A stretch of 64,000 nt of DNA from Escherichia coli (lineage in GTDB: Bacteria; Pseudomonadota; Gammaproteobacteria; Enterobacterales; Enterobacteriaceae): NCBI RefSeq assembly GCF_046105845.1, contig NZ_CP151004.1; one strand, written 5' to 3'. The notes under the pieces are model-generated. The model did no database searches, was not told where the DNA came from, and was given only the letters and a program-made list of their open reading frames with translations. Made by a program: the position numbers and the translations under genes. Each line of letters begins with the position of its first letter. The stretch's first letter is position 1. Positions 9,497-32,963 of the stretch are shown piece by piece.

Positions 9497-12400
9497 TTAG
9501 TCAAACGGCGGTGGGGCCAGCACTTCACGATTACCGTTGTGCCCCTGCTCGCTGACAATCCCCTGCGCTTCCATCTGTTCGATAATACGCGCTGCACGGT
9601 TATAACCAATGCGGAACTGACGCTGTACGCCAGAAATTGATGCTTTGCGTTTTTCAGTGACAAACTGCACCGCCTGATCGAACAACGGATCCAGCTCTTC
9701 AGCGCCATCGAAACCGCCCGCGCCACCTTCGCTTTCGCTGTCGGAGGTGATGCCATCAACATACTGTGGGCGACCACGCGCTTTCCAGTCCTGCACCACG
9801 GCATGAACTTCCTGATCGCGAACAAAAGCACCATGAACACGTACCGGCAACGTGGAGTTCGGCCCAGAGTAAAGCATATCCCCCATACCCAGTAGTGATT
9901 CCGCGCCAGCCTGATCAAGAATGGTACGTGAGTCAATCTTACTGGATACGGTAAAGGCGATACGGGTCGGAATATTCGCTTTAATCAGACCAGTAATAAC
10001 ATCAACCGATGGACGCTGAGTTGCCAGTACGAGGTGGATACCCGCGGCACGGGCTTTTTGCGCCAGACGTGCTATCAGCTCTTCCACTTTTTTACCTACG
10101 GTCATCATCAGGTCGGCAAATTCGTCCACCAACACCACAATGTATGGTTCTTTTTTCAGCACCGGATGCTGGGCGTCCATACTGTCACCCGGCTTCCAGT
10201 ACGGGTCTGGAATCGGACGCATCATGCGATCGGCTTCAGCAATTTTTTCGTTATAACCCGCCAGATTACGCACACCTAGGGCGGACATAAGCTTATAACG
10301 ACGTTCCATTTCATTTACGCACCAGCGCAAAGCGTTGGCAGCATCTTTCATGTCGGTAACGACTTCCGTTAACAGATGCGGAATGCCTTCATAAACCGAA
10401 AGCTCCAGCATTTTCGGGTCGATCATGATGAAACGCACATCTTCTGGCTGTGCTTTATAAAGCATGCTCAGGATCATCGCGTTCACACCGACAGACTTAC
10501 CGGAACCGGTAGTCCCCGCAACCAACAAGTGCGGCATTTTCGCCAGATCGGCAACCACCGGCTCACCGGCGATATCTTTACCCAGCACCACGGTTAATGG
10601 CGACGGATTATCGCGGAATTTGGCGTTATCCAAAACTTCGCGCAGATATACGGTTTGTCGTTTTTTATTCGGTAACTCCAGACCTACATAGGGTTTGCCA
10701 GGAATAACTTCAACGACACGCACCGCCACCGTCGAAAGTGAACGGGCAAGGTCCCGTGACAAGTTAGAAATACGCGCCGCTTTTACGCCCGGTGCCAGGT
10801 TAAGTTCAAAGCGAGTGATAACCGGCCCCGGAGAGTAATTGACAACATCGGCTTTAATACGGAAATCAGCCAGACGCGCTTCCACCAGACGCGCCATTTG
10901 TTCAAGCGCAAAGGTATCTACCGGCTCCACTTCGCTCGGCGGAGGTGTCAACAAATCCAAAGAAGGCAGCGGCGTCGTCGGTTTATGCAACGGACGGCTG
11001 TCGCCATTACGCATCAACAGCGGATGAAGCAGGGTATCCTGCGGCTGTGGCGCAACTGGCTGTTGTGGCTGCTGATACTGCGGCTGCGGTGCAACCGGTT
11101 GTTGTGGCTGCTGATACTGCTGCTGCGGTGCAACCGGTTGTTGCGGCTGCTGATATTGTGGCTGCGGCGCAACCTGCTGTTGTGGCTGCTGATACTGCTG
11201 CTGCGGTGCAACCGGTTGTTGCGGCTGCTGTACAGGTTCAACAATTGGCGTAAACAACGGTTCGTGTGGACCATCATCCAGCAACGCTTTCATTGGCGAA
11301 AATTCAAAATCATCCAGCGAGAACGGATTCGCCCCAGCCGGTTGTTCGCCGGAATAACGTTGTTGTTGAGTTTGCGCAAACTGACGAGCCAGTTCAGCCT
11401 CTGCCGCAGCATCTGCATCTTCTGCGTTTACGGGCACATCATGTTGATACTGTTCGCCATAGCGTTGCTGCTGTGTCTGGGCGAACTGACGTGCCAGTTC
11501 ATCCTGCTGCATCGCATCGATTTCATCATCGTTGTACTGATCGCCAGAATCGTACTGATTGCGCTGGGCTTCACGGGCTTTTTCTTCCGCCGCACGCTGT
11601 GAGGGCAGCTTAATACCGTAAGACGCCAATTCACGACGAGTTGGCACGCGGATACGTTTCGGTCGTGGCAACTGCGGGCCAATCCCCTCTTTGACCTGCG
11701 GACGCGGTCCAGCGCTATTTGCCAGACTGAAGACTGGCGCGGCAACGGTTGCGGCAGCCCCCGTCGCCAGTGTCGCTTTTTTCACGCCAGATGCCAGAGG
11801 GGAAACAGCGGCAGCGGCTTCCACTGGAGGTACTGCTGCAACAGAAGGTGCTTTTAGCGAAGATTTGATCGGTTCTGGTTCTTTAACCGGTTCTGGAATC
11901 GGTTGATACCAGGCCGCAAGTTGTTCACGTTCACGGGCTCGCTTCTCTTCCACTTCTTCAAAGTAGTAAAGCGGCGGACGCGCGGGTTTTGTCTCTTCTA
12001 CAACGGGTTCAGGCTCCACAACAGGCTGCTGTTCAACAGGTTGCGGCTGTTGGTACAACGGCTCCTGAGCGACTGGCTGCTGATAAGTTTGCTCAGTCTG
12101 GTATGTAGACTGTGGAGCAAAAGTGGATTGCTGCTCTTCGGCTTGCCAGGCGTTACCTGCCACCGATTGTTCTGGCGCAGGGGCGTAATACGGCTGTTGC
12201 GCAGACTGTTCCGGCGCAGGGGCGTAATACGACTGTTGCGCAGACTGTTCCGGCGCAGTTGCGTAATACGGTTGCTGAACAGGTTGTTCCGCCGCAGGCG
12301 CATAATACGGCTGCTGTGGCTGTACAGGTTGTTGCAGCGGCTCATTATATTGCACTGCAGGCTGCGCATATTGTGGCTGCTGTGGGTAACCTTCCGGTGC

Positions 12401-13525
12401 AGGAGCAATCACCGGCTCTCCCGTTTGTGGCCCCGGTACAGGCTGCCAGGCTACTGTAGGTTGTGCAGGTGCAACATCAACAGAGGCAACAGGTGGCGTC
12501 TGAGTCACAGGTTCAACCGGTGCAGCCCAGCTTTGCGTCGCCGTGGTAGCAGCAGCTGCTACAGCAACAGGTTCGGTAATTGGCGCACCGTTTAATAATG
12601 GATCGTACTCGTCATATTCTGGCTGCGTTGCACGATTGCCCGAAAAGAGGACGTCGTCAGGGTCGGCAGCCACACCGCGTGCAGTGTAGGTAATCTCTTC
12701 GTCATCATCCATCCGCTTACCGGAGAACAACGCAGCGTCTGTTTGCCGCCCCATCGGATTAATGAATTTTTCCGCCAACCGTTTACGACGCGCTAGCGCG
12801 CCGCGAAGAATACGAGCACGGCGTGATTCATGCTGTTTGCCGTGATTTTCATCTTCATACTCTTCGTCATCTTCATACTCATCTTCATCGACCCAGGTAT
12901 CATCGCGACGGGTACGATTACTGGCGAAGGTGAGAATGTTTAAAATCCAGCCGCCGAGTTTTTCAGCAATGGTCACCCATGACCAACCGGTGAACAGCGT
13001 CAGACCCGCAGCCCAAACGCAGAGCAGCGCAATAGTTCCCCCGCTACTGTGTAGCAGTGGTTGTAGCGTAGTGCTTAGTAAGCTGCCAATGACGCCACCG
13101 GAGGCAAAATACCAGATATCGTCAGCGTTGATTGCCGCCAGACCACAGGAGGTAAGGATGAGCGCCAAAACGCCAATGATGCGTAGCGAAACGGCAAAAT
13201 AATCAATGTATTCGTCGCTGGACTGATGACGCCAGGCAAACCAACAACCGCCGACAATAATGACGGGAATGGTGTAAGCCATCACGCCAAAAATAAAGAA
13301 CAGCGTATCTGCCAGCCATGCACCGGGCATCCCACCTAAATTATGGATAGGTTCATGCCAGGCCGTTTGCGACCAGCTGGGGTCCGAAGGGTTAAAGCTT
13401 AGTAAGGCAGCCATCAACCAGACGGCAAACAGGACAATAAGGATCAGCAACGCCTCCAGAAGGCGGCGGCCGCTACTTAACTTTGTCAATGTGACTTCTT
13501 TGTCTTCAGTGTATTCCTGGCTCAA
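9497..13525 (-). CDS. ftsK: DNA translocase FtsK
   Basis: 1342 aa; N-terminal membrane domain, long Pro/Gln-rich linker, C-terminal motor with Walker A GTTGSGKS and gamma domain. Confidence 0.95.
11041..11235 (-). repeat. In-frame 39-bp tandem repeats in ftsK linker (about 5 units, [13 protein letters not shown]-type)
   Basis: Near-identical units ggctgctgatactgctgctgcggtgcaaccggttgttgc repeated head-to-tail on the + strand. Confidence 0.85.
12160..12320 (-). repeat. In-frame 39-bp tandem repeats in ftsK linker (about 4 units, [13 protein letters not shown]-type)
   Basis: Units ggcgcaggggcgtaatacggctgttgcgcagactgttcc repeated with a few substitutions. Confidence 0.85.
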
Positions 13526-13659
13526 GAAAGGCTCTCCAGGTTACAGGCTTTTCCTGCCCGATGCTAAAACGGACAACAGTACCAGGTTACCCCAGTACTG
13601 TTGCTGTATGGATTAACAGGAGTGTAATCAAAATACGCCGATTTTGCACCTGTTCCGTG

Positions 13660-14154
13660 TTAGCGCGTCTTAATAACCAGACGATTACTCTGCTTGACTT
13701 CTTCCATAACAACGTATGTCCGTGTGTCATTGACGCCAGGCAGACGCAGCAGGGTTTCCCCCAACAACTTACGGTAAGCTGACATATCCGGCACGCGTGT
13801 TTTCAACAGGTAGTCGAAATCACCGGATACTAAATGACACTCCTGAATTTCTTCAAGTTTTTGTACAGCGGTATTGAATTGTTCAAACACATCCGGTGCG
13901 CCACGATTCAGAGTAATCTCAACGAATACCAGAAGTGATGCATCCAGATAATGAGGGTTCAGCAGCGCCGTATAGCCCTGAATAAACCCTTGTCTTTCCA
14001 GCCGACGCACACGCTCAAGGCACGGCGTTGGGGAAAGTCCCACACGTTTAGAAAGCTCGACGTTAGAAATACGCCCATCCTTTTGCAACTCATTAAGAAT
14101 GTTACGATCGATACGGTCGAGATCTTTGCCAGGGCGCTTCTTGCTATCTACCAT
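13660..14154 (-). CDS. lrp: Leucine-responsive regulatory protein
   Basis: ORF 13660..14208; start at internal ATG gives MVDSKKRPGKDLDRIDRNIL..., 164 aa. Confidence 0.95.
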   Translation of the reverse strand: MVDSKKRPGKDLDRIDRNILNELQKDGRISNVELSKRVGLSPTPCLERVRRLERQGFIQGYTALLNPHYLDASLLVFVEITLNRGAPDVFEQFNTAVQKLEEIQECHLVSGDFDYLLKTRVPDMSAYRKLLGETLLRLPGVNDTRTYVVMEEVKQSNRLVIKTR

Positions 14155-14581
14155 TATTATTGTCTCTCTGTATTCCTTCCCTACTCCTGTCTGACCCTGA
14201 TACATCACTGTTCAGAGTCGCTACCCGTCACGATAGACCGAAATCATGAAGATTCACGGCGCGCAATGCCTGGGTCTACGGTGAGAAGACCGTTGCCTTG
14301 TGGCAGCTATCGACATCACGAATGGCGTCTGTCCACGCCATACGTAGATTTCACTAGCACGGTAAACATGGTATTTACATGCATGGTTATGCGCATATAA
14401 GAATACTGTTTTTTTTCTTCCTCGAATGTTTTCGCAAAACACCAGGGGATTGTCAAAGCAAAACATCGATTTTTAGTACAACATGCCAGATATTCATTAC
14501 CAGGGGCGTTTATTCATCATTTAATCGGCTTATAAAGCGGGAAATTTAAGTAGCAGAGGTGATAATGACGGGAGAGTTTGA

Positions 14582-15664
<1,083 letters not shown>

Positions 15665-15692
15665 TTTTACAAATCAGTAACAAAAGTAAAGA

Positions 15693-15730
15693 AGGCGACA
15701 CCATGCGACTATGGGTCGCCTTTATTTTTT
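15693..15730 (+). terminator. Rho-independent terminator after trxB
   Basis: Hairpin ggcgacaccatgcgactatgggtcgcc followed by tttatttttt. Confidence 0.6.
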
Positions 15731-15786
15731 CCTCGTTGTAACATTGCTCTGCAAATAATTCTGATAACTCACCTGCTAAGCGTGCA

Positions 15787-17553
15787 ATGAATAAATCCCG
15801 TCAAAAAGAGTTAACCCGCTGGTTAAAACAGCAAAGCGTCATCTCCCAACGTTGGCTGAATATTTCTCGTCTGCTGGGCTTTGTGAGCGGCATATTGATC
15901 ATTGCCCAGGCCTGGTTCATGGCGCGAATTCTGCAACATATGATTATGGAGAATATTCCCCGTGAAGCCCTGCTGCTTCCCTTTACGTTACTGGTTCTGA
16001 CCTTTGTACTGCGCGCATGGGTGGTCTGGTTACGCGAACGGGTGGGTTATCACGCCGGGCAGCATATCCGCTTTGCCATCCGCCGTCAGGTTCTCGACCG
16101 TCTGCAACAAGCAGGGCCAGCGTGGATTCAGGGTAAACCGGCGGGGAGCTGGGCGACGCTGGTACTCGAGCAAATTGACGATATGCATGATTACTATGCA
16201 CGCTACCTGCCGCAAATGGCGCTGGCAGTGTCGGTGCCGTTGCTGATTGTGGTGGCTATCTTCCCCTCAAACTGGGCTGCAGCGCTGATTCTGCTGGGCA
16301 CTGCACCGCTAATTCCGTTATTTATGGCGCTGGTTGGAATGGGGGCTGCCGATGCTAACCGACGTAACTTTCTCGCTCTTGCTCGCTTAAGTGGGCATTT
16401 TCTCGATCGCCTGCGCGGCATGGAAACATTGCGTATTTTTGGTCGTGGTGAAGCTGAAATTGAAAGTATTCGTTCTGCTTCGGAAGATTTCCGCCAACGG
16501 ACAATGGAAGTGCTACGGCTGGCGTTTTTATCCTCCGGCATTCTCGAATTTTTTACCTCGCTGTCAATTGCTCTGGTGGCGGTCTACTTTGGTTTTTCCT
16601 ATCTCGGCGAGCTGGATTTTGGTCACTATGATACTGGCGTGACGCTGGCTGCGGGTTTTCTAGCCCTGATCCTTGCGCCGGAGTTTTTCCAGCCATTACG
16701 CGATCTCGGTACGTTTTATCATGCTAAAGCCCAGGCTGTTGGCGCAGCTGACAGTCTGAAAACGTTTATGGAAACCCCGCTCGCCCATCCGCAACGTGGT
16801 GAGGCGGAATTAGCATCAACCGATCCGGTGACCATTGAAGCCGAGGATCTGTTTATTACATCACCAGAAGGTAAAACGCTGGCTGGACCGCTGAACTTTA
16901 CTTTGCCAGCAGGCCAACGTGCAGTGTTGGTTGGTCGCAGCGGTTCAGGTAAAAGCTCACTGCTGAACGCGCTTTCTGGTTTTCTCTCATATCAGGGATC
17001 GCTACGAATCAACGGGATAGAATTACGCGATTTATCACCGGAATCATGGCGTAAACATCTCTCCTGGGTTGGGCAAAACCCACAATTACCGGCAGCAACA
17101 CTACGGGATAACGTACTACTGGCACGACCTGATGCCAGCGAACACGAGTTACAAACAGCGCTGGATAACGCCTGGGTCAGTGAGTTTCTACCGCTCCTGC
17201 CACAAGGCGTTGATACGCCTGTTGGCGACCAGGCTGCCCGCCTTTCCGTAGGGCAGGCACAGCGCGTGGCGGTGGCCCGAGCATTACTAAATCCCTGTTC
17301 GCTATTACTGTTGGATGAACCCGCTGCCAGCCTTGATGCTCACAGTGAACAGCGCGTAATGGGGGCGCTTAATGCCGCCTCTCTGCGCCAGACAACGTTA
17401 ATGGTCACCCACCAGTTAGAAGATCTTGCTGACTGGGATGTCATTTGGGTAATGCAGGATGGTCAGATTATTGAGCAAGGACGTTACGCGGAATTAAGCG
17501 TGGCTGGTGGTCCTTTCTCCACATTGCTGGCCCATCGTCAGGAGGAGATTTAA
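15787..17553 (+). CDS. cydD: ABC transporter CydD (cysteine/glutathione export, cytochrome bd assembly)
   Basis: 588 aa; N-terminal TMD plus C-terminal ABC ATPase (GRSGSGKSS, LSVGQAQR). Confidence 0.95.
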   Translation: MNKSRQKELTRWLKQQSVISQRWLNISRLLGFVSGILIIAQAWFMARILQHMIMENIPREALLLPFTLLVLTFVLRAWVVWLRERVGYHAGQHIRFAIRRQVLDRLQQAGPAWIQGKPAGSWATLVLEQIDDMHDYYARYLPQMALAVSVPLLIVVAIFPSNWAAALILLGTAPLIPLFMALVGMGAADANRRNFLALARLSGHFLDRLRGMETLRIFGRGEAEIESIRSASEDFRQRTMEVLRLAFLSSGILEFFTSLSIALVAVYFGFSYLGELDFGHYDTGVTLAAGFLALILAPEFFQPLRDLGTFYHAKAQAVGAADSLKTFMETPLAHPQRGEAELASTDPVTIEAEDLFITSPEGKTLAGPLNFTLPAGQRAVLVGRSGSGKSSLLNALSGFLSYQGSLRINGIELRDLSPESWRKHLSWVGQNPQLPAATLRDNVLLARPDASEHELQTALDNAWVSEFLPLLPQGVDTPVGDQAARLSVGQAQRVAVARALLNPCSLLLLDEPAASLDAHSEQRVMGALNAASLRQTTLMVTHQLEDLADWDVIWVMQDGQIIEQGRYAELSVAGGPFSTLLAHRQEEI

Positions 17554-19275
17554 ATGCGCGCTTTGCTACCCTATCTGGCACTGTATAAACGTCATAAATG
17601 GATGTTAAGTCTTGGTATTGCGCTGGCAATTGTCACACTGCTCGCCAGTATCGGTCTGTTGACACTTTCCGGCTGGTTCCTCTCCGCCTCAGCGGTAGCG
17701 GGGGTTGCCGGACTGTATAGCTTCAACTATATGCTACCCGCTGCGGGCGTGCGTGGCGCAGCAATCACCCGTACTGCCGGGCGCTATTTTGAACGTCTGG
17801 TAAGTCACGACGCGACTTTCCGCGTGTTGCAGCATCTGCGCATTTACACCTTCAGCAAATTGCTGCCCCTATCCCCTGCCGGACTGGCGCGCTATCGTCA
17901 GGGCGAATTGCTCAACCGCGTGGTGGCGGATGTTGATACGCTCGATCATCTTTACCTGCGCGTTATCTCGCCGCTGGTGGGCGCTTTTGTGGTGATTATG
18001 GTGGTGACAATCGGGTTAAGTTTCCTTGATTTCACCCTCGCCTTTACGCTGGGCGGCATTATGTTACTGACGCTTTTCCTGATGCCACCGCTGTTTTATC
18101 GTGCGGGAAAAAGCACCGGGCAAAATCTGACTCATCTTCGCGGGCAGTATCGCCAACAACTGACGGCCTGGCTGCAAGGGCAAGCTGAGCTGACCATTTT
18201 TGGTGCCAGCGATCGTTATCGCACGCAGTTAGAGAATACCGAAATTCAGTGGCTGGAAGCGCAACGACGTCAATCTGAACTCACCGCATTGTCGCAAGCG
18301 ATAATGCTGCTCATTGGCGCGTTAGCGGTGATCCTGATGCTGTGGATGGCGTCTGGCGGCGTTGGCGGCAATGCTCAACCCGGCGCGTTAATTGCCCTGT
18401 TTGTCTTCTGCGCGTTAGCCGCGTTTGAAGCACTGGCACCAGTAACGGGTGCATTTCAGCATCTGGGGCAAGTCATTGCCTCTGCCGTACGGATCACTGA
18501 CTTAACGGATCAAAAACCGGAGGTCACCTTCCCTGATACCCAAACTCGTGTTGCCGATCGCGTTTCGCTGACGTTACGGGATGTTCAGTTCACTTATCCG
18601 GAGCAATCCCAACAGGCACTTAAAGGGATTTCTCTTCAGGTAAACGCCGGAGAACATATAGCGATTCTCGGGCGAACCGGATGCGGCAAATCAACACTGT
18701 TACAACTGCTGACCCGCGCATGGGACCCGCAACAGGGCGAGATTTTGCTTAACGATAGCCCCATAGCCAGCCTGAATGAAGCGACTCTACGACAGACCAT
18801 CAGCGTTGTGCCACAGCGAGTGCATCTGTTTAGCGCCACGCTGCGTGATAATCTGTTACTCGCCTCGCCTGGCAGTAGTGATGAGGCTCTGGCGGAGATC
18901 TTACGTCGCGTTGGTCTGGAGAAGCTGCTCGAGGATGCAGGTCTCAACAGTTGGTTGGGTGAAGGCGGACGCCAGCTCTCCGGTGGTGAACTACGCCGTC
19001 TGGCTATCGCCCGTGCGCTGTTACATGATGCGCCGCTGGTATTGCTGGATGAACCTACAGAAGGCTTAGATGCCACAACCGAAAGTCAGATCCTTGAATT
19101 GCTTGCAGAAATGATGCGTGAGAAAACGGTGTTAATGGTCACCCATCGACTTCGTGGACTCTCTCGTTTCCAACAAATAATAGTGATGGACAACGGGCAA
19201 ATTATTGAGCAAGGTACTCACGCAAAACTGCTTGCCAGACAGGGGCGTTATTACCAGTTTAAGCAGGGTTTGTAA
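17554..19275 (+). CDS. cydC: ABC transporter CydC
   Basis: 573 aa; starts directly after the cydD stop; TMD plus ABC ATPase (GRTGCGKST, LSGGELRR). Confidence 0.95.
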   Translation: MRALLPYLALYKRHKWMLSLGIALAIVTLLASIGLLTLSGWFLSASAVAGVAGLYSFNYMLPAAGVRGAAITRTAGRYFERLVSHDATFRVLQHLRIYTFSKLLPLSPAGLARYRQGELLNRVVADVDTLDHLYLRVISPLVGAFVVIMVVTIGLSFLDFTLAFTLGGIMLLTLFLMPPLFYRAGKSTGQNLTHLRGQYRQQLTAWLQGQAELTIFGASDRYRTQLENTEIQWLEAQRRQSELTALSQAIMLLIGALAVILMLWMASGGVGGNAQPGALIALFVFCALAAFEALAPVTGAFQHLGQVIASAVRITDLTDQKPEVTFPDTQTRVADRVSLTLRDVQFTYPEQSQQALKGISLQVNAGEHIAILGRTGCGKSTLLQLLTRAWDPQQGEILLNDSPIASLNEATLRQTISVVPQRVHLFSATLRDNLLLASPGSSDEALAEILRRVGLEKLLEDAGLNSWLGEGGRQLSGGELRRLAIARALLHDAPLVLLDEPTEGLDATTESQILELLAEMMREKTVLMVTHRLRGLSRFQQIIVMDNGQIIEQGTHAKLLARQGRYYQFKQGL

Positions 19276-19316
19276 GCTATTATTGAACGATCCGACTTGC
19301 GTGGAGTTTTGCGGTC

Positions 19317-20021
19317 ATGCGCCTGGTTCAGCTTTCTCGCCATTCAATAGCCTTCCCTTCCCCGGAAGGCGCATTACGTGAGCCTAACGGCCTGCTGGCA
19401 CTGGGGGGCGATCTTAGCCCTGCGCGCCTGTTAATGGCTTACCAGCGTGGTATTTTTCCGTGGTTTTCTCCAGGTGACCCCATCCTCTGGTGGTCGCCCG
19501 ATCCTCGCGCGGTGCTTTGGCCTGAATCACTGCATATCAGCCGTAGTATGAAGCGATTTCATAAACGCTCGCCCTATCGAGTCACGATGAATTACGCTTT
19601 TGGTCAGGTCATTGAAGGCTGTGCCAGCGATCGCGAAGAAGGAACCTGGATCACGCGTGGCGTGGTCGAAGCCTACCATCGCCTTCACGAACTCGGTCAT
19701 GCCCACTCTATTGAAGTCTGGCGTGAAGATGAGCTTGTCGGCGGTATGTACGGCGTGGCCCAGGGAACGCTATTTTGTGGCGAGTCCATGTTCAGCCGGA
19801 TGGAAAATGCGTCTAAAACGGCGCTTCTGGTATTCTGTGAGGAATTTATTGGTCATGGCGGTAAACTTATCGACTGCCAGGTCCTTAACGATCACACAGC
19901 GTCGCTTGGTGCCTGCGAAATTCCCCGCCGGGATTACCTCAATTATCTCAATCAAATGCGCCTCGGACGATTGCCGAATAATTTCTGGGTACCACGGTGC
20001 TTGTTTTCACCACAAGAATGA
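19317..20021 (+). CDS. aat: Leucyl/phenylalanyl-tRNA--protein transferase
   Basis: 234 aa; recognised as Aat. Confidence 0.95.
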
Positions 20022-20302
20022 ATGTTTTCGGCACATTTCTCCCCAGAGTGTTATAATTGCGGTCGCAGAGTTGGTTACGCTCATTACCCCGCTGCCGATA
20101 AGGAATTTTTCGCGTCAGGTAACGCCCATCGTTTATCTCACCGCTCCCTTATACGTTGCGCTTTTGGTGCGGCTTAGCCGTGTGTTTTCGGAGTAATGTG
20201 CCGAACCTGTTTGTTGCGATTTAGCGCGCAAATCTTTACTTATTTACAGAACTTCGGCATTATCTTGCCGGTTCAAATTACGGTAGTGATACCCCAGAGG
20301 AT

Positions 20303-20524
<222 letters not shown>

Positions 20525-20565
20525 TTGTTTTACCGCCTGATGGGCGAAGAGAAAGAACGAGTAAA

Positions 20566-20590
20566 AGGTCGGTTTAACCGGCCTTTTTAT
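20566..20590 (+). terminator. Rho-independent terminator after infA
   Basis: Hairpin ggtcggtttaaccggcc followed by tttttatttt. Confidence 0.6.
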
Positions 20591-20704
20591 TTTGTGATAT
20601 GTATGAAGTACTTTGGAAGTATAAGTCCATAACTTGTCTCGATGTAGATATACTGCACAACTTGTTTACAGTATGAGCAAACAATAATTATCATTAAAAT
20701 TCTT

Positions 20705-20734
20705 CTTGACCGTTTTACTCCAACTCCCTATAGT
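20705..20734 (+). promoter_or_regulatory. Candidate sigma-70 promoter for serW (cttgac-N18-tatagt, GC-rich discriminator)
   Basis: -35/-10-like hexamers about 45 nt upstream of the tRNA; discriminator gcgcccc is typical of stringently controlled stable-RNA promoters. Confidence 0.45.
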
Positions 20735-20777
20735 AGCGCCCCGTTGCCACCCATGAGGTTTGGTAGCAAAACAATTT

Positions 20778-20865
20778 GGTGAGGTGTCCGAGTGGCTGAA
20801 GGAGCACGCCTGGAAAGTGTGTATACGGCAACGTATCGGGGGTTCGAATCCCCCCCTCACCGCCA
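20778..20865 (+). tRNA. serW: tRNA-Ser (anticodon GGA), 88 nt with long variable arm, encoded CCA
   Basis: Acceptor stem GGTGAGG/CCTCACC, anticodon loop cuGGAaa, T-arm gggggttcgaatccccc, genomic CCA end. Confidence 0.95.
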
Positions 20866-20875
20866 TATTCAAAGA

Positions 20876-20908
20876 AGAGTTCGTACGAAAGTGCGAGCTT
20901 TTTTTTCG
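20876..20908 (+). terminator. Rho-independent terminator after serW
   Basis: Hairpin gttcgtac-gaaa-gtgcgagc (two G-U pairs) followed by T8. Confidence 0.6.
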
Positions 20909-21025
20909 CATATTGCACTCCAGGGGGGATGAGAAGCCCCGACCGGGGTTCGACAACTGGCGCAGCCAGTTGGACAGACCACGAACACAGTGAGTGGGCT
21001 GCCCGCAGGGCGAGCGAAGCGAGTC

Positions 21026-21088
21026 AATCCCCCCTCACCGCCATATTTAAAGAAAAGCTCGTACGAAAGTACGAGTTTTTTTTCGCAT
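21026..21088 (+). repeat. Direct duplicate of serW 3' end (last ~21 nt) plus its terminator
   Basis: aatcccccctcaccgccatat...gtacgaaagtacgag-T8 repeats 20847..20917 with a few substitutions; period about 179 bp. Confidence 0.7.
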
Positions 21089-21321
21089 TTTATCTGCCTG
21101 TACGGCAGTGAACGGTATAAAAATCGAGTTTTTCTTTCGGTTGGCTTTCTAAGCTGCCTGTACGGCAGTGAACTCAAATACTACACGTTTAGTCCGTTAT
21201 TAATAAAGCAAAACCATCTCATTTTCCTGCTGCCACCCTTTTTTATTCTTACCTTCCAGCACCATTAATTATCAACAACTTACCTTCACCTCCAAAAATA
21301 GGGTTTTCACCGCCCCAGCCT

Positions 21322-21360
21322 ACAAACAAAAAGTCCGTAACCTCTTTCGAGATTACGGAC
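21322..21360 (-). terminator. Rho-independent terminator after clpA
   Basis: Minus-strand hairpin gtccgtaa...ttacggac followed by a T-rich run, just past the clpA stop. Confidence 0.6.
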
Positions 21361-21385
21361 TTCACCAACCTACCTGACAATCAGA

Positions 21386-23662
21386 TTAATGCGCTGCTTC
21401 CGCCTTGTGCTTTTGTGCACTCTGGAATCCATAAGTCAGCTCATTTTTCTCTTTATCCAGCGCAACCGTCACCTGACCGCCGTCCACCAGCGAACCAAAC
21501 AACAGTTCGTTGGCGAGCGGTTTTTTCAGGTTGTCCTGGATGACACGCGCCATCGGACGTGCGCCCATTGCCCGGTCGTAACCTTTCTCGGCCAGCCAGT
21601 TACGCGCTTCCTGGCTCACTTCCAGAGAAACACCTTTCTGATCCAACTGAACCTGCAACTCGACGATGAATTTATCCACTACCTGATGGATCACGTCGGT
21701 GGAGAGATGATCGAACCAGATAATGTTGTCGAGACGGTTACGAAACTCCGGCGTAAAGATCTTCTTGATCTCTTCCATCGCATCGGTACTGTTGTCCTGG
21801 TGGATAAGACCAATCGATTTACGCTCAGTTTCTCGTACCCCAGCGTTGGTGGTCATCACCAATACCACGTTACGGAAGTCCGCTTTGCGTCCGTTGTTAT
21901 CGGTCAGCGTACCGTTGTCCATCACCTGCAACAGAATATTGAACACGTCCGGGTGCGCTTTCTCGATTTCGTCCAGCAGCAGCACCGCATGTGGATGCTT
22001 GATGACCGCATCAGTCAGCAAACCGCCCTGATCAAAACCAACGTATCCCGGAGGCGCACCAATAAGACGGCTGACGGTATGGCGTTCCATATACTCGGAC
22101 ATATCAAAGCGCAGAAGCTCAATGCCCAACGCTTTCGAAAGCTGTACCGTCACCTCTGTTTTCCCGACCCCGGTAGGGCCGGCAAACAGGAACGAACCAA
22201 CCGGTTTATGTTCGTGACCTAAACCTGCACGCGCCATCTTAATGGCTTCAGTCAGCGCCTCAATGGCTTTATCCTGACCGAAGACCAGCATTTTCAGGCG
22301 ATCGCCGAGGTTTTTCAGGGTATCGCGGTCACTCTGCGAAACACTCTTCTCTGGAATGCGCGCAATACGGGCCACCACGGACTCAATATCCGCCACATTA
22401 ACGGTTTTCTTGCGTTTGCTTACCGGCATCAGGCGTGCGCGAGCGCCCGCTTCGTCGATAACGTCAATGGCTTTATCCGGCAGATGACGATCGTTAATGT
22501 ATTTCACCGCCAGCTCTACCGCTGCACGCACCGCTTTTGCGGTATAACGCACGTCGTGGTGCGCTTCATACTTCGGTTTCAGGCCATTGATGATTTGAAC
22601 AGTTTCTTCGATCGACGGTTCAGTAATATCAATTTTCTGGAAGCGACGCGCCAGAGCACGGTCTTTCTCGAAAATGTTGCTGAACTCCTGATAGGTTGTC
22701 GAACCAATTACGCGAATTTTACCGCTGGAGAGCAGCGGTTTGATCAGGTTAGCCGCATCGACCTGGCCACCAGACGCTGCACCTGCACCGATAATGGTGT
22801 GGATCTCATCAATAAACAGGATGCTGTTAGTATCCTGCTCCAGCTGCTTGAGCAACGCTTTAAAACGTTTTTCAAAGTCGCCGCGATATTTAGTGCCCGC
22901 TAACAGAGAACCGATATCGAGAGAGTAAATCGTACAGTCAGCCATCACTTCCGGCACATCGCCCTGAACAATTCGCCAGGCAAGACCTTCCGCAATCGCG
23001 GTTTTACCGACACCAGACTCCCCCACCAGCAGCGGGTTGTTTTTACGGCGACGGCAGAGAACCTGAATAGCACGCTCCAGCTCCTTCTCACGACCAATCA
23101 GTGGGTCGATTCCGCCCACACGCGCAAGCTGATTCAGGTTCGTCGTGAAATTCTCCATACGTTCCTCCCCACCAGCTTGTTCTTCGCTGTTTGGCTGGCT
23201 GCCAGGATCAGAAGACTGTGTCGGCTCGTCTTTACGCGTGCCATGAGAGATAAAGTTCACCACATCGAGACGGCTGACTTCATGTTTACGCAACAGATAT
23301 GCCGCCTGCGACTCCTGTTCGCTAAAAATAGCGACCAGAACGTTTGCACCGGTAACCTCATTGCGACCGGAGGACTGGACATGGAAGACCGCACGTTGCA
23401 GTACACGCTGAAAACTCAGCGTCGGCTGTGTGTCGCGCTCCTCTTCACTGGCAGGCAGAACGGGTGTGGTTTGTTCAATAAAGGCTTCCAGTTCCTGACG
23501 GAGCGCAACCAAATCCACAGAACACGCTTCCAGCGCCTCCCGGGCAGATGGGTTACTGAGCAGCGCCAGTAACAAGTGCTCGACGGTCATAAACTCATGA
23601 CGGTGCTCGCGCGCTCTGGCGAAAGCCATATTTAAACTGAGTTCCAGTTCTTGATTGAGCAT
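21386..23662 (-). CDS. clpA: ATP-dependent Clp protease ATPase subunit ClpA
   Basis: ORF 21386..23677; start at internal ATG gives [19 protein letters not shown]..., 758 aa; two AAA+ modules ([16 protein letters not shown]). Confidence 0.95.
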
Positions 23663-23692
23663 AGGCACCTCCCCCAATTTTTATGCCTGCAT

Positions 23693-24013
23693 TCAGGCTT
23701 TTTCTAGCGTACACAGCAATGGATGCTCATTCTCCCTCGCGTACTTGTTCACCATCGCCACTTTGGTTTCTGCAACCTCGGCGGTAAAGACTCCGCAAAT
23801 GGCCTTCCCCTGGTAGTGAACAGCGAGCATCAATTGCGTTGCACGTTCTACATCATAAGAAAAGAATTTTTGTAACACGTCAATAACAAACTCCATCGGA
23901 GTGTAATCATCATTGACTAATATCACTTTATACATAGATGGCGGTTTTAGCGCGTCGCGAACTTTTTCTTCCGCCAGTTGATCAAAGTCCAGCCAGTCGT
24001 TCGTTTTACCCAT
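23693..24013 (-). CDS. clpS: ClpA adaptor protein ClpS
   Basis: 106 aa; immediately upstream of clpA; recognised as ClpS. Confidence 0.95.
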
Positions 24014-24335
24014 TGTCAGTTATCATCTTCGGTTACGGTTATCGGCAGAACGCCCTGCCGCTGACAAGAGCTTATTTGCCTGACCAATCTACTCCACATG
24101 ATAGATAACTATCATCTATCGTTGGCATCAGCGACATCTGTCACATTCCTGTCAATAGCGTTAACTGCTTCAAATTTTTGATTCATACCTGCCCCCTGGC
24201 CCCTGTCAAATGCTTGACGGCTCGCCCTAATTCTCTAAATTGTATTTCTAGAGTTGGCGAGGTTTTGAACAGCCCCCTCTCTGACCCCGGTTTATTCCAT
24301 CTTACTTGTATAAGATTTGCGAAGGATGTCGAAGC

Positions 24336-24560
24336 ATGGAAAAGGGTACTGTTAAGTGGTTCAACAATGCCAAAGGGTTTGGTTTCATCTGCCCTGAAGG
24401 CGGCGGCGAAGATATTTTCGCTCATTATTCCACCATTCAGATGGATGGTTACAGAACGCTAAAAGCTGGACAATCCGTTCAGTTTGATGTCCACCAGGGG
24501 CCAAAAGGCAATCATGCCAGTGTTATTGTGCCCGTCGAAGTAGAAGCGGCAGTCGCATAG
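24336..24560 (+). CDS. cspD: Cold-shock-domain protein CspD
   Basis: ORF 24306..24560; start at internal ATG gives MEKGTVKWFNNAKGFGFI..., 74 aa. Confidence 0.9.
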   Translation: MEKGTVKWFNNAKGFGFICPEGGGEDIFAHYSTIQMDGYRTLKAGQSVQFDVHQGPKGNHASVIVPVEVEAAVA

Positions 24561-24593
24561 CTCTTCTGTCTCATTGTGTACATCCTAAAGGCA

Positions 24594-24624
24594 AAATGCC
24601 AGCCCGATCGGCTGGCATTTTTAT
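24594..24624. terminator. Bidirectional terminator between convergent cspD and macB
   Basis: Hairpin aaatgccagcc-gatc-ggctggcattt flanked by A and T runs. Confidence 0.6.
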
Positions 24625-24632
24625 CTCAAAAA

Positions 24633-26579
24633 TTACTCTCGTGCCAGAGCATCTACTGGATCCAGTCGTGCCGCATTTCGTGCGGGTAACCAGCCAAATA
24701 AAATCCCGGTGACCGTCGAGCAGAGAAACGCCAGCAGCAGCGCCAAAGGTGAAAAACCAATCTCCCAGCCGGGTAAGAAAAGCTGCAAGGTGAAAGCAAT
24801 TAACAGTGACAGTGTTATTCCCAACGCGCCACCGACCAGGCAAACCAGCACGGCTTCGATCAGGAACTGTTGCAACACATCACTTGCTCGCGCACCTACA
24901 GCCATGCGAATGCCAATTTCCCGCGTCCGCTCGGTCACTGACACCAGCATAATATTCATTACACCAATACCGCCCACCACCAGCGAAATCACCGCCACCA
25001 GCGTCAGAAACAGTTGTAAAGTACGTGTGGTCTTTTCAACGGTTTTCAAGACGCCGTCCATGTTCCAGGTAAAGAAATCCTTTTTTCCGTGGCGCAGTGA
25101 AAGTAAACGCATGAGTTGCTGTTCCGCCTCAGCGCTGTCAAATCCTTCTTTCACCCTGACAGTAATGGAGTTCAGCCACGACTGGCCCATAACTCGCCCG
25201 GACATCGTGCTGTAAGGTAGCCAGACACGCAGCACTTTACTGCTACCAAACATCGACTGTTTTTCTTCCGCCACACCAATGACTCTGGCGGGCATATTGC
25301 CGACCAGAATCACCTCGCCAACCACATCTGCTTTATGGGGGAAAAGCTGGCGGCGAGTATTACTGTCGAGAACTACGACCTGCGCACGACCGTTCAGCTG
25401 CTCCTGATTAAAGGTGTTCCCTTCACTGAAGGTCATGCCATAGACATTAAAATAATCGCCGCTCACGCCATTGGCACTGGCAGCCACATCAACATTGTTA
25501 TAACGCAGGCGCAGGTTTTGCGAGACGGCAGGTGTGGCTGAGGCGACCCACGGTTGTTTTTGGATGGCGATTAAGTCATCGTACTTCAGCGCCTGCTGAT
25601 ATTGCGGATCGTCATCGCCAAAATCTTTCCCGGGATAGACATCAATAGTATTCGTACCAATAGAACGAATATCCGCCAGCACCATTTGTTTGGCGGCGTC
25701 ACCCACCACGACAATGGAAACCACCGACGCAATACCGATAATAATCCCCAGCATGGTCAGTAAAGTACGCATTTTATTCGCTGCCAGCGCCCGCCATGCC
25801 ATCGTCAGCGCCTCGTTAAAACCGCTGACAAACTGCCGCCAGCCAGACGCCGTGTTGACAGCAGGTTCCGTCCCGCCAGCAACATTCACTTTTTCAATGG
25901 CGGGAGGATTGCGCACAATTTCGCCGTCGCGAATTTCGATCACCCTCTCGGCCTGAGCAGCGACCTGCGGATCGTGGGTAACGATAATCACCGTATGCCC
26001 GCGATCGCGCAGCTGATGCAGGATCGCCATCACCTCTTCGCCAGAATGGCTGTCCAGTGCGCCGGTTGGTTCATCGGCAAGAATTACCTGACCGCCGTTC
26101 ATCAATGCCCGCGCGATGCTGACGCGCTGTTGCTGACCACCCGAAAGCTGTGCCGGATAATACTCTGTACGGTCTTCCAGCCCCAGTCGTTGCAGCAACT
26201 CCTGGGCGCGAAGCAGCCGCTGTTTCCGCTCAAGACCGGCATAGACGGCGGGTACTTCAACGTTCTGCTCGGCGGTTAAATGCGAAAGCAAATGGTAACG
26301 CTGGAAAATAAAGCCGAAATGCTCGCGGCGCAGTTGCGCCAGCGCATCGGCGTCCAGCGTGGCAACATCCTGACCGGCTACGCGATAGGTGCCGCTGGTG
26401 GCCTTATCCAGGCAGCCGAGAATATTCATTAGGGTCGATTTACCGGAACCCGAAGCGCCGACAATCGCCACCATCTCACCAGCATAAATATCGAGGGTGA
26501 TGCCCTTCAGCACCTCAACCTGCTCATCACCGGCAGGATAGCTGCGACGAATATCCTTTAATTCGAGCAAGGGCGTCAT
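24633..26579 (-). CDS. macB: Macrolide/peptide export ABC transporter MacB (ATPase-permease fusion)
   Basis: 648 aa; N-terminal ABC ATPase ([17 protein letters not shown]) plus FtsX-like permease. Confidence 0.95.
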
Positions 26580-27691
26580 TGTGCAGCTCCTGGTTTGGCC
26601 TCACCAATCACCACTTCATCGCCCGCTTCCAGCCCTTTGACAATCTCAACATCGGTATCGTTACGTGCGCCAATCGTCACTTCACGCTCGCGTGTTTCAC
26701 CATTACGCAACAATTTGACTTTATAACGATTATCGCCAACCGGATCGCCTAACGCCGACAGAGGGATCGTCAGCACATTTTTCACATCGGTGAGCTGAAT
26801 ATGCACTTGCGCAGTCATATCCAGCCGCAGCAAACCATTGGGGTTGGGGACTTCAAAACGGGCGTAATAGAAAATAGCGTCGTTAACCTTTTCCGGCGTC
26901 GGTAGTACATCCTTGATTTGCCCCTCGTAGCGCGTCAGTGGATCGCCAAGCACCGTAAACCAGGCTTTTTGCCCCGGCTTCAGGTGGATTACATCCGCTT
27001 CAGAAACCTGCGCTTTTACCAGCATGGTGCTCATATCTGCCAGCGTCAGAATGTTCGGTGCTTGTTGTGCGGCAATCACCGTCTGGCCTTGCAGAGTAGT
27101 GATTTGCGTGACTTCCCCGGCCATCGGAGCAACGATGCGGGTGTAATCGAGATTGGTTTTAGCCGTATCGAGAGAGGCCTGATTGCGCTTGATTTGCGCG
27201 TCAATGGTGCCAATTTGCGCCTGTTTCACAGCCATCTCCGTCGCGGCGGTATCGAGATCCTGCTGTGAAACCGCTTGCGTTTGTGCAAGACGTTGCTGAC
27301 GGGAATACGTCACCCGCGCCAGTTTCAGCTCCGCTTCCGCCTGCTGCCGCTGCGCGCGTAGCTCCATCAGCGTTGCTTCCACCTCCTTAATCTGGTTTTC
27401 AGCCTGTTCAGGATCAATAACCCCTAAAAGCTGGTCTTTTTTTACTTTATCACCAATCGCCACCGACAGCGTTTTCAACTGACCGCTGACCTGCGCGCCC
27501 ACATCAACCTTACGCAGCGCGTCCAGCTTTCCGGTCGCCAGCACGCTTTGCTGTAAATCACCGGGGCGCACAATCAGCGTCTGATAAGTCGGCACGGGTG
27601 CGTTAAGAATTCTCCATAACGTAATCAGCCCGGCAATGACTATCACCAGCGCAATAACGTAACGCTTCTTCACGGTTTTCCGCTTTTTCAT
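26576..27691 (-). CDS. macA: Membrane fusion protein MacA
   Basis: ORF 26576..27718; start at internal ATG gives [21 protein letters not shown]..., 371 aa; 4-bp overlap with macB start. Confidence 0.9.
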
Positions 27692-27805
27692 AAATATTCT
27701 GAATACTCCATATGCCAATCCGGGTCATTAACTTCAACGAAATATCAACAAAACCCTAAAATTTACGTTAGTAATCACACTATTGATGTTTGGTTAAGAT
27801 ACGCA

Positions 27806-28798
27806 ATGGTGAAATCGACGTCATGTATAACCATTGATTTCATGAATATGTCGCAGCTAACTGAACGGACCTTTACGTCATCTGAATCTCTCAGCAGCCT
27901 GTCACTTTTTCTTAGTCTGGCACGTGGACAGTGTCGGCCGGGTAAATTCTGGCATCGCCGTAGTTTTCGCCAGAAATTTTTGCTGCGCTCGTTGATTATG
28001 CCGCGTTTAAGCGTTGAGTGGATGAACGAACTTTCCCACTGGCCCAATCTCAATGTGTTGTTAACGCGCCAGCCGCGACTGCCTGTGCGTCTGCATCGCC
28101 CTTACCTTGCGGCGAATCTTAGCCGTAAGCAATTGCTGGAGGCGTTACGTTACCATTATGCGTTACTCCGCGGGTGTATGTCGGCGGAAGAATTCAGCTT
28201 ATATTTGAATACCCCCGGGCTGCAACTGGCGAAGCTGGAAGGCAAAAACGGCGAGCAGTTCACACTTGAGCTGACCATGATGATCTCAATGGATAAAGAA
28301 GGTGACAGCACAATCCTGTTCCGCAACAGCGAAGGTATTCCTCTGGCAGAGATCACGTTTACCCTGTGTGAATATCAGGGGAAAAGAACGATGTTTATTG
28401 GCGGACTGCAAGGCGCAAAATGGGAAATTCCACATCAGGAAATCCAGAATGCGACGAAAGCCTGCCACGGGCTATTTCCTAAACGCCTCGTGATGGAAGC
28501 GGCCTGTCTGTTTGCCCAACGTTTGCAGGTAAAGCAGATCATTGCCGTCAGCAATGAAACACATATTTACCGCAGCCTGCGTTATCGCGATAAAGAAGGC
28601 AAGATCCATGCTGATTACAACGCTTTCTGGGAGTCGGTTGGCGGCGTATGTGATGCTGAATGCCATTACCGCCTTCCGGCACAGATAGCACGAAAAGAGA
28701 TTGCCGAAATCGCCAGTAAAAAACGGGCTGAATACCGTCGGCGCTATGAGATGCTCGACGCTATTCAGCCACAAATGGCCACGATGTTTCGCGGTTAA
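27806..28798 (+). CDS. ybjX: VirK/YbjX-family protein (DUF535)
   Basis: 330-aa ORF in the conserved position between macA and ybjD; exact start uncertain (ATG candidates at 27806, 27842, 27848). Confidence 0.8.
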   Translation: MVKSTSCITIDFMNMSQLTERTFTSSESLSSLSLFLSLARGQCRPGKFWHRRSFRQKFLLRSLIMPRLSVEWMNELSHWPNLNVLLTRQPRLPVRLHRPYLAANLSRKQLLEALRYHYALLRGCMSAEEFSLYLNTPGLQLAKLEGKNGEQFTLELTMMISMDKEGDSTILFRNSEGIPLAEITFTLCEYQGKRTMFIGGLQGAKWEIPHQEIQNATKACHGLFPKRLVMEAACLFAQRLQVKQIIAVSNETHIYRSLRYRDKEGKIHADYNAFWESVGGVCDAECHYRLPAQIARKEIAEIASKKRAEYRRRYEMLDAIQPQMATMFRG

Positions 28799-30453
28799 TC
28801 CGCGCGACCGCGCGCCAGCCACAGCACGCGTGAGAACATTTTTTTCAGCAGCGTCGGTACGGAGTCCACACCACGACGTCCGGCCTCCATTGCCACTTCA
28901 ATGGCAAGATCGGGTTTGGAAGAGCGATGGATCGCTTTCGAGATAATTTTGCGCAGATTCATCGGTACATTTTCCGGGATTTGCGCCACGCGGTGGAACA
29001 CATCGGAAAATCCCTGGCGATACATAAAATGTTCCATATCCAGCGCCGGTAACGCCGTTAAATGTTCTCGTTCGGCTTCCCGATCGTTATTCAACAGGCT
29101 GCGTACCGTAGCGGCATATTTCTTCCCTGCTTCATCGCCATCGACCAGTACATGCCATTCAATCCCCATTCGGCGGGCAAATTTAACCAGTGGCTTTAGC
29201 CCGGACTGGGCAAACTCAATGACCTTGATTCCTTCGGCATCAAAATGATGTCCGCACTGACGCGCCAGTTCATTGATAACCCAGGTTTCCGTTTCGCCTT
29301 CCACCAGCAGCCAGCAGCGTGCAAACAGCGATGACGGACGATTAAAACGAATGTGGAAAGAGATGCGTCGGCTGTCTTCGGTACTCAAACCACTCGGTCC
29401 CAGACGCCAGGCGGCAACGCGCGAGGACTCACGTACCAGTCGGCAAATATGCTCTACCGGCGTTAACGAAAGCAACTCACCCGAGTTGGTGGTGGCAATG
29501 CGCTGCAATGGCAGAAGATTCAACAGATGCCAGGCAACTGAAAGCATAATGGGGTGTAAACGGGTTTCTGGATCTTCGATCAGCAACAATGGACGGGCGT
29601 CTTTATCCAGTCGCAATGTGCCTTTTGCCTGCAACAAAGTAGCAAACAGGCCGAGCAAAATAACCCGATACGAGCGCCCTCCTGGTCGGTCAATCATCCG
29701 GTTGATGATATCCAGATAGCGCCAGCTTCGTTGCTCATTGCTGGCTCGCCGCCGCATTAAACGATATCGCGCCTGTCCGGCCCCCTGCTCAGAGAAATAA
29801 TGCTCTAGCAGCTGTACCATTGCGGAAAGTCCCTGACGAATCTGCCCATCAGAGAGATTTTGCGGATGTGAGGATAACTCACGGGCGAGGAAATCGAGCT
29901 GGCGCGCGGTGACTTCCACATTAGGGACATTTGGCACCGTGCCGTTACGAATACGGCGCATAAAACGGGCATCACGCAAGCGCAGCACCGGCATTAAACG
30001 CACCAGATGGCGTGCCTGATCGTTAATATCCTCGACATCAATCGGATGTCCGTCTTTATCGAGAAAACTGCGCAGTGTCATCACGCTGCCGTCTTCCGCA
30101 CTCTCCCCTTCCAGACGATAAAAAATACGGTGATAGCCATCGGTGCATGGCGTCCAGCACGCTTCCAGCGGCCGATAACGGCGAACCCGATGTCGGCCTG
30201 GCAACGATTCGCGGAAGGTCAAAATAATATGCAGATGATGTTCTCGCCCGTTGATATCTCCCGGCGGGAACCAGAAATCGTCGCGCTCAAAATGGTAGAG
30301 ATCTGATTCTGGCGATAGCAGCAGAGTTAAGGCGTCCAGCAAGCTGGATTTACCCCACGCGTTCTCCCCAATCAGGACGTTGTTTTGTTCCAGCATCAAC
30401 GACAAACGGTTGATACCGCGAAAACCCACAATTTCAACGCGCTCAAGAATCAT
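28795..30453 (-). CDS. ybjD: OLD-family putative nuclease YbjD (N-terminal ABC-type ATPase, C-terminal Toprim-like region)
   Basis: 552 aa; Walker A GENAWGKSS at the N-terminus; recognised as YbjD; stop overlaps the ybjX stop (shared TTAA). Confidence 0.85.
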   Translation of the reverse strand: MILERVEIVGFRGINRLSLMLEQNNVLIGENAWGKSSLLDALTLLLSPESDLYHFERDDFWFPPGDINGREHHLHIILTFRESLPGRHRVRRYRPLEACWTPCTDGYHRIFYRLEGESAEDGSVMTLRSFLDKDGHPIDVEDINDQARHLVRLMPVLRLRDARFMRRIRNGTVPNVPNVEVTARQLDFLARELSSHPQNLSDGQIRQGLSAMVQLLEHYFSEQGAGQARYRLMRRRASNEQRSWRYLDIINRMIDRPGGRSYRVILLGLFATLLQAKGTLRLDKDARPLLLIEDPETRLHPIMLSVAWHLLNLLPLQRIATTNSGELLSLTPVEHICRLVRESSRVAAWRLGPSGLSTEDSRRISFHIRFNRPSSLFARCWLLVEGETETWVINELARQCGHHFDAEGIKVIEFAQSGLKPLVKFARRMGIEWHVLVDGDEAGKKYAATVRSLLNNDREAEREHLTALPALDMEHFMYRQGFSDVFHRVAQIPENVPMNLRKIISKAIHRSSKPDLAIEVAMEAGRRGVDSVPTLLKKMFSRVLWLARGRAD

Positions 30454-30878
30454 ATCCCCTCCAGAAATATGTGACTTATCCTTTACGCTGGCAGTATAAC
30501 GGGAAAGGCCATGCTAATACGTGATGACATCACATTTAAGCATGGCAAATGTCTGAAAAATGAGCGAATAATCGCGTTATACTCCCTCTTGCTGATAAGC
30601 CTGCAAAAACAACAAAATCAAATAATTAGCATGATAAATTATTTTTTATTACGCCTAAAGGATTAAATCTTTTGCTTGCACTACACTGTCAATCAGACAA
30701 ATGACTATATGGGGCAACCCGCTGTTGCCCTAAATCAAATTTACTGGATTTATTTATCTGGTGAATGACTCGCCTTCGTTTTTAAAATAGCCGCGCATTA
30801 TTTCCGTCGTCACTTTTTTACGACGACCCTATAAAACGACCATATTTTTCACAGGGTCAATTTTTAATTGAGGTGGAT

Positions 30879-32930: not shown

Positions 32931-32963
32931 TACCTCTCTGGCGGTAGATCCCTGCCGCCAAAA

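Follow-up and report, generated by a model that had tools for sequence, protein, structure and literature searches.

The window, by which we mean the whole 64-kb stretch of Escherichia coli DNA that was analyzed, carries ftsK on its minus strand at 9497..13525, as an open reading frame with a TTG start that encodes 1342 residues. By sequence comparison, the TTG start is the same as that of K-12 ftsK; the gene order lrp-ftsK-lolA is also that of K-12, and the gene is 98.1% identical to K-12 b0890 over the 3663 collinear nucleotides lying outside the two repeat arrays described below. The product presents the full architecture of the DNA translocase FtsK, with the 4TM, linker, alpha, FtsK_SpoIIIE P-loop and gamma parts all present. 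Pfam matches were found for FtsK_4TM (residues 20-191), FtsK_alpha (853-953), FtsK_SpoIIIE (961-1174) and FtsK_gamma (1277-1337). All four families score far above their cut-offs, and the exact protein carries identical precomputed matches. The gap between the Pfam domains at residues 192-852 (10970..12952, minus strand) is the linker, and it contains both arrays, which fall outside every Pfam domain of FtsK. The sequence-only reading, which had placed the repeats in a Pro/Gln-rich linker between the membrane domain and the motor, is thus borne out on this point. FtsK-L has been described as unstructured, Pro/Gln-rich and about 650 residues long (PMC5357621), and reviews add that it varies between species, is required for full FtsK activity and touches divisome proteins (PMC5357621; PMC3870252). 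Two plus-strand open reading frames, at 10898..11602 and 11903..12595, were rejected as genes, being no more than CAG/CCG-rich coding sequence read in antisense, which is free of stops.

The array nearer to the motor, array A, lies at 11039..11233 on the minus strand (residues 765-829) and consists of five in-frame units of 39 nt, as delimited by the codon register and the unit table. Tandem Repeats Finder (TRF) placed it at 11039..11230, with a period of 39, 4.9 copies, 86% matches, no indels and a score of 293. Pro and Gln make up 77% of its residues, the mean pairwise identity of its units is 86%, the last two of the five units are the same at the protein level, and the array ends 23 residues short of the FtsK_alpha match. 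Array B, delimited in the same manner, lies at 12155..12310 on the minus strand (residues 406-457) and holds four in-frame units of 39 nt of the PYYAPAPEQ type, of which the last is half degenerate. For this array, TRF gave 12168..12313, a period of 39, 3.7 copies, 85% matches, no indels and a score of 201, while the mean pairwise identity of the units is 76%. Directly upstream of array B, a degenerate stretch of one unit length (12311..12349, minus strand) has a QQP..QQP microrepeat. Two in-frame 39-bp arrays in ftsK had been proposed from the letters alone, at 11041..11235 and 12160..12320; TRF and the reading of the codon register confirm both of them, with coordinates that agree to within about 10 bases and with the unit counts (five and four) and motifs correctly given.

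To judge these scores against composition, the codons of the linker were shuffled 300 times. The best TRF score at a period of at least 12 then averaged 5.4 and reached 64 at most, with 0 of the 300 shuffles attaining 200. As these scores are far below those of both arrays, a composition rich in Pro and Gln does not account for the arrays. Throughout the 64 kb, the only tandem repeats that scored 60 or more were arrays A and B and a small 18-bp acidic repeat, which is also in ftsK. A common origin of the two arrays was considered and rejected, since the best in-frame rotation of one unit type onto the other gave 18 identities out of 39, fewer than the mean of 20.1 obtained with shuffled codons (p = 0.99).

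The ftsK gene of K-12 MG1655 (NC_000913.3, b0890) is 3990 nt long and encodes 1329 residues, so that the lengths previously given for K-12 (1329 residues) and for the window (1342) both hold. That the difference of 13 residues is exactly one repeat unit, as had been proposed, is contradicted by the protein alignment, in which the window protein exceeds that of K-12 by 26 residues, or two units, in array B and falls short of it by 13 residues, or one unit, in array A, i.e., A5/B4 in the window and A6/B2 in K-12. Two units gained in array B and one lost in array A give the net 13 residues, and they imply no fewer than two events, spread over two loci. Both gaps are of whole units, and whole-unit copy-number variation is thereby upheld as the source of the length difference. 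The earlier interpretation is therefore partly supported: the kind of change was correctly recognised, but the count was not, as three units at two loci are concerned rather than one. The two extra units in array B carry substitutions of their own (T, S, QS) and, thus, are not fresh copies of the K-12 unit. The window allele further differs from that of K-12 by 69 SNPs outside the arrays, and the path between the two may include imported alleles.

A survey of FtsK length across E. coli strains, as had been suggested, was run on a collection of 5,426 complete E. coli genomes, from which samples of 59-60 genomes were taken at even spacing down the ranking of matches. The sampled strains are phylogenetically non-independent, and this should be considered when referring to the counts given here. 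Since whole-gene megablast split the matches into pieces that overlapped in the repeats, the arrays were instead cut out of synthetic queries, and array length in each genome was read from the span that the match covered across the joined flanks. Array A was 273 nt long in 30 of 59 genomes, 234 nt in 17, 312 nt in five, 195 nt in two and 351 nt in one, i.e., it ranged from 5 to 9 units in this sample; the other four genomes had alleles that were off register by 15 or 24 nt (249 nt in two, 258 nt in one and 288 nt in one). Array B measured 156 nt in 22 of 60 genomes, 78 nt in 19, 117 nt in 18 and 60 nt in a single one, which amounts to 2-4 units in 59 of the 60. The allele of the window is thus uncommon for array A (five units, 2/59) and is the longest common allele for array B (four units, 22/60). 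When both arrays were deleted from the query, the summed copy number ran from 4 to 14 units, implying FtsK lengths that vary from 1277 to 1407 residues. The commonest implied lengths among 59 genomes were 1368 (17 genomes), 1355 (12), 1329 (11) and 1342 residues (9), and the exact 1342-residue protein was found on four independent contigs.

Seventeen genes were dissected at the level of single units, namely the window ftsK, that of K-12 and those of 15 other E. coli strains. Once the arrays and five codons (VQPQQ) beside array B were removed, 3663 nt remained, collinear in 17 of 17 genes, and all length variation in these genes therefore lies inside or directly beside the arrays. Two genomes that had been picked for extreme total length gave one unit in array A for EC529 (1277 residues) and 11 units for 204446 (1407 residues). 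The off-register alleles hold either a 15-nt partial unit (YQQPQ) or a truncated unit of eight codons, and strain H22 has an 18-nt in-frame deletion across the QQP..QQP microrepeat beside array B. Every variant is a multiple of 3 nt (39, 78, 15, 18 or 24), and FtsK is full-length in all 17 genes. A phase-variable contingency locus, in which a change in repeat number would switch expression through a frameshift or through altered spacing in the promoter, was rejected on these grounds, as 39 nt is 3 x 13 nt, all variants are in frame and 17/17 genes are full-length. The same length can be reached in different ways: FtsK also has 1342 residues in O157:H7 F1273 (B2/A7) and in RM11911 (B4/A5, with a different unit order), and SCAID URN1 (B3/A5) and K-12 both have 1329. 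FtsK length is homoplasious, with 1342 residues arising from at least three allele structures, and length alone is a poor descriptor of allele structure.

Both arrays are known from strain typing. Using published primers (PMC4553163), we located the forward site of ms06 at 12407..12426 (minus strand, one mismatch) and its reverse site at 12048..12067 (plus strand, exact); the pair brackets array B with a predicted amplicon of 379 bp. The forward site of ms07 (CVN001) lies at 11471..11490 (minus strand, exact) and its reverse site at 10943..10962 (plus strand), with three mismatches, each of which falls on a synonymous position in the codons for LPSLDLLTP; this pair brackets array A with a predicted amplicon of 548 bp. 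Array A is the multiple-locus VNTR analysis (MLVA) locus ms07/CVN001 and array B is the MLVA locus ms06. The identity of ms07 with CVN001 of the generic E. coli MLVA has been stated (PMC4553163), and the locus goes back to the GECM scheme of Lindstedt and the primers of Gorge et al., as cited in PMC4553163, PMC5217547 and PMC3877011. Among 47 S. sonnei isolates, with units of 39 bp, alleles 2-4 were reported for ms06 and alleles 2 and 4-8 for ms07 (PMC4553163), and Swedish ESBL E. coli presented CVN001 alleles 4-8, most commonly 5 and 6 (PMC5217547). The published CVN001 numbering seems to be our unit count minus one, as ST131 has seven units here and allele 6 in that study (PMC5217547). With this apparent offset of one unit, the Swedish CVN001 alleles agree with our genome sample. 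The repeat variation of ftsK is therefore already known, as both arrays are published typing loci.

Pairs of genes that are identical outside the arrays are the most informative on how copy number changes. Strains ecoli019 and 204446 have 0 SNPs in the 3663 nt outside the arrays, and array A has 9 units in the former and 11 in the latter, the excess in 204446 being one more two-unit block. Nissle 1917 and GPEC1186 likewise show 0 SNPs in 3663 nt, and their array A differs by sub-unit indels. Since pairs with no SNP differ in array A, the array changes faster than point substitutions accumulate. EC529, with its single unit of array A, is only 6 SNPs away from ecoli019 and from 204446. Array A of the window corresponds to the 8-unit array of SC418 minus units 2-3 and with units 5 and 6 merged into a chimera, a pattern that reads as the footprint of in-register misalignment.

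We consider it highly probable that the ftsK arrays are in-frame minisatellites in the disordered segment that tethers the DNA-pumping motor to the septal membrane anchor, and that slippage or unequal exchange changes their length in a near-neutral way. The instability of tandem repeats in E. coli is an established basis for such a reading. Units that are 76-86% identical and lie head-to-tail would be expected to misalign, either in replication (slipped-strand mispairing) or in unequal exchange between sister chromosomes, and whole units or two-unit blocks would then be gained or lost, with chimeric units arising on the way. As the period is divisible by three and the segment has no fold to break, such changes should be tolerated, each allele still encoding a complete FtsK. 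Tolerated changes would build up as near-neutral length polymorphism, and repeated exchange would homogenise the units within a species. The molecular mechanism, whether slippage or unequal recombination, is something that we infer from these patterns, as is the near-neutrality of the changes, which is suggested by the natural tolerance of 1-11 units and by one negative allele swap in another genus, although slight effects on fitness, by way of division or dimer resolution, may still exist.

Further to the E. coli survey, one genome per species was scanned for DNA coding for YQQPQQPV. The scan gave 92 loci, of which 14 are ftsK, all in Enterobacterales. The rest are isolated matches, due to chance, in Q/P-rich genes of no relation to ftsK; one of these encodes an Erysipelotrichaceae membrane-anchored protein with YQQP repeats of its own. 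In Citrobacter species (4.1-8.2 copies), Escherichia sp. MOD1-EC7003 (7.4 copies) and S. enterica subsp. arizonae L062 (4.5 copies), the place of array A is taken by a 39-bp array, which in S. enterica subsp. arizonae directly precedes the motor domain. The unit variant that runs through the array is specific to the species, as in the Escherichia species and in C. sedlakii, and AQPPQ YQQP(Q/H)QPV is seen in two Citrobacter species. The pattern is one of concerted evolution. Serratia and Enterobacteriaceae RIT691 have at this position a Q/P-rich stretch without the 13-residue periodicity.

Several other explanations for the length differences need to be considered. A single gain of one 13-codon unit would fit the net difference of exactly 13 codons between the window and K-12 (1342 and 1329 residues), but the alignment places two gaps about 330 residues apart, in opposite directions, and the substitutions in the extra units of array B show no recent duplicate of a K-12 unit, so that we give this explanation next to no credence. 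The idea that the differences are sequencing or assembly artefacts draws on the fact that tandem repeats can be collapsed by short-read assemblers. Nonetheless, the arrays are only 39-430 nt long and the RefSeq genomes in the comparison set are all of complete level; identical alleles turn up in many independent genomes, such as the 273-nt array A in 30/59, and the exact 1342-residue protein on four independent contigs, and fragment sizing by PCR in the MLVA studies gives the same allele ranges. An artefact is thus just as improbable as the single gain. More weight, though still clearly the smaller share, goes to the view that the allele differences stem mainly from exchange between lineages, with whole ftsK alleles imported through homologous recombination, in place of slippage on the spot. 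Unit variants are lineage-specific, with S-containing units of array B common to the window, SC418, 19KM1776, RM14516 and WP4-S18, the window allele is 33-99 SNPs away from every sampled E. coli allele, and the summed copy number varies as if both arrays traveled together in lineages. However, pairs with zero SNPs over 3663 nt differ by two units or by sub-unit indels, the chimeric unit in array A of the window marks an in-register deletion, multiple alleles occur within the single species S. sonnei (PMC4553163), and import moves alleles but cannot make new copy numbers. As the main source of the differences, import is therefore unlikely.

Another possibility is that copy number is tuned adaptively, with the arrays setting the reach or stiffness of the tether and lineages being selected for different or for constant total length. 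In support of this, FtsK depends on the linker for its normal activity, divisome proteins are contacted by parts of the linker (PMC5357621), and array A has kept its 13-residue period beside the motor in three genera, Escherichia, Salmonella and Citrobacter. In a sample of 59 genomes, the summed copy number had a variance of 2.7, as opposed to the 1.27 expected if the arrays were independent, with a bootstrap 95% confidence interval for the excess of 0.33-2.84. Compensation between the arrays, which would keep the total linker length constant, is rejected by this value. The excess runs counter to compensation and is of the sort expected from lineage structure. The summed-variance test showed no sign of selection on total FtsK length, although it is a weak test on small and phylogenetically non-independent samples. 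Also against tuning, natural alleles of array A run from 1 to 11 units in nearly identical gene backgrounds, Serratia and Enterobacteriaceae RIT691 do without the 13-residue periodicity, and in S. Enteritidis, a swap of the ftsK repeat indel between strains had no effect on egg-white survival, in the one assay tried (PMC6137255). We regard adaptive tuning as very doubtful. A narrower version, in which the motor-adjacent 13-residue PQ repeat, conserved in register in these three genera and homogenised within each species, is selected as a spacer module whose copy number (1-11) could tune the distance or stiffness with which the motor is tethered from the septum, appears only marginally less improbable; if true, a typing marker would double as a natural allelic series for linker function. 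We found no evidence for a function of the arrays beyond spacer length.

Near-neutral variation of in-frame minisatellites thus accounts best for the arrays, and as a discovery it carries little weight, since the variability of the PQ repeats of ftsK is textbook-level for the typing of E. coli, Shigella and Salmonella. FtsK researchers, too, already treat the linker as variable. What is new is confined to the possibility that the number of units tunes the tether. For practical purposes, differences in ftsK length should not be taken for annotation errors or for functional divergence. With 1-11 units of array A, sometimes in otherwise identical genes, natural strains offer a ready allelic series for the study of tether length in division and chromosome dimer resolution.

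When compared with known systems, array A presents no structural difference from ms07/CVN001, both having a 39-bp unit and a copy number that is polymorphic from strain to strain. The same applies to array B and ms06, where the published alleles 2, 3 and 4 correspond to the 2, 3 and 4 units of our genome sample. In Salmonella, the ftsK VNTR known as STTR7/SENTR2 is an in-frame 39-bp repeat that lies in the PQ region; S. Enteritidis NCTC 13349 has 9.3 copies of it (PMC2430564). It has also been described as an ftsK VNTR in Typhimurium (PMC8627665), and in S. Enteritidis, an indel in ftsK has been mapped to codons 757-784 (PMC6137255). By position and unit sequence, STTR7/SENTR2 would be orthologous to array A, from which it differs in its unit variants and copy numbers. 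A more distant parallel, among in-frame VNTRs in extended linkers of envelope proteins, is provided by the tolA VNTR SENTR1, an MLVA marker with a 45-bp unit (Table 1 of PMC2430564). Like the ftsK arrays, it has a period divisible by three, lies in a gene for an envelope or division protein and serves in MLVA, whereas the gene, the unit and the residue composition are different, such that the likeness is one of kind and not of homology.

The repeat number of array A, the in-frame 39-bp array that has five units in the window (11039..11233, ftsK, minus strand), varies widely in other E. coli. The natural minimum is a single unit, giving an FtsK of 1277 aa, in E. coli EC529 (NZ_AP039439.1), while the natural maximum is 11 units, giving an FtsK of 1407 aa, in E. 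coli 204446 (NZ_CP025910.1); the ftsK backgrounds of these two strains are only 6 SNPs apart. A smaller change is found in E. coli H22 (NZ_CP120563.1), where an in-frame deletion of 18 nt (VQPQQP), at the position of window 12311-12328, spans a QQP..QQP microrepeat immediately upstream of array B, the four-unit 39-bp array at 12155..12310. Events of less than one unit, at microhomology, thus occur as well.

The window's lineage is thinly represented among complete E. coli genomes and protein records. Over the 20-kb flank at 13600-33600, identity reaches only 99.0% with the top match in a search of 5,426 complete E. coli genomes; the nearest ftsK among those sampled is 33 SNPs from the window allele, and the identical 1342-aa FtsK protein is recorded on only four contigs. 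The isolates with the nearest ftsK alleles came from a dog, a blackbird, a wood-wren and sediment. The source of the window may be a Shigella or an E. coli lineage that is under-sampled. Both 39-bp arrays are also retained in the ftsK of SCPM-O-B-8794 (NZ_JAATUR010000002.1), a representative in the genome collection that is labelled E. coli. As its FtsK is 89.7% identical to the window protein (aa 10-773), far outside the 97-99% identity seen among complete E. coli genomes, this isolate probably belongs to another Escherichia species or clade.

Searches of the same 5,426 genomes with array-deleted linker-flank queries returned a few irregular matches. Alone among the sampled genomes, E. coli CRE10 (NZ_CP034404.1) matched the ftsK linker in two separate places (matches H120 and H240, coverage 59% and 81%), which suggests that its ftsK carries an insertion, has been rearranged or is broken in the assembly. 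Eight linker-flank matches fell on plasmid-labelled records, and a single genome out of the 5,426 gave no match; these cases may reflect mis-assigned replicons or a mislabelled genome.

Other repeats are found in the linker outside the two arrays. Between them, a 14-residue dispersed duplicate is encoded on the minus strand at 11354-11395 and 11459-11500 (aa 711-724 and 676-689), its two copies spaced by 35 residues. Because Citrobacter, Salmonella and RIT691 share this conserved pair, ELARQFA.(S/T)QQ.RY, it may represent a functional motif instead of low-complexity sequence. Just C-terminal of the membrane domain lies a small acidic 18-bp tandem repeat (12848-12889, minus strand, aa 213-226; TRF score 68), across which the 17 ftsK genes compared are collinear. 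Antisense to the arrays, two long Leu/Arg-rich ORFs on the plus strand (10898-11602, 234 aa; 11903-12595, 230 aa) were rejected as genes: they exist only because CAG/CCG-rich coding sequence is free of stops when read on the opposite strand.

YQQP(S/Q/V) repeats also form a tract in a 556-aa protein of the Erysipelotrichaceae MAG RUG14856 (locus L032, 1640-3310, plus strand; also at locus L037). When compared with FtsK, this protein shows no similarity; its membrane anchor is at the C-terminus, and its repeat tract includes a 39-nt periodicity. The Q/P/Y-rich repeat of this Firmicute is convergent.
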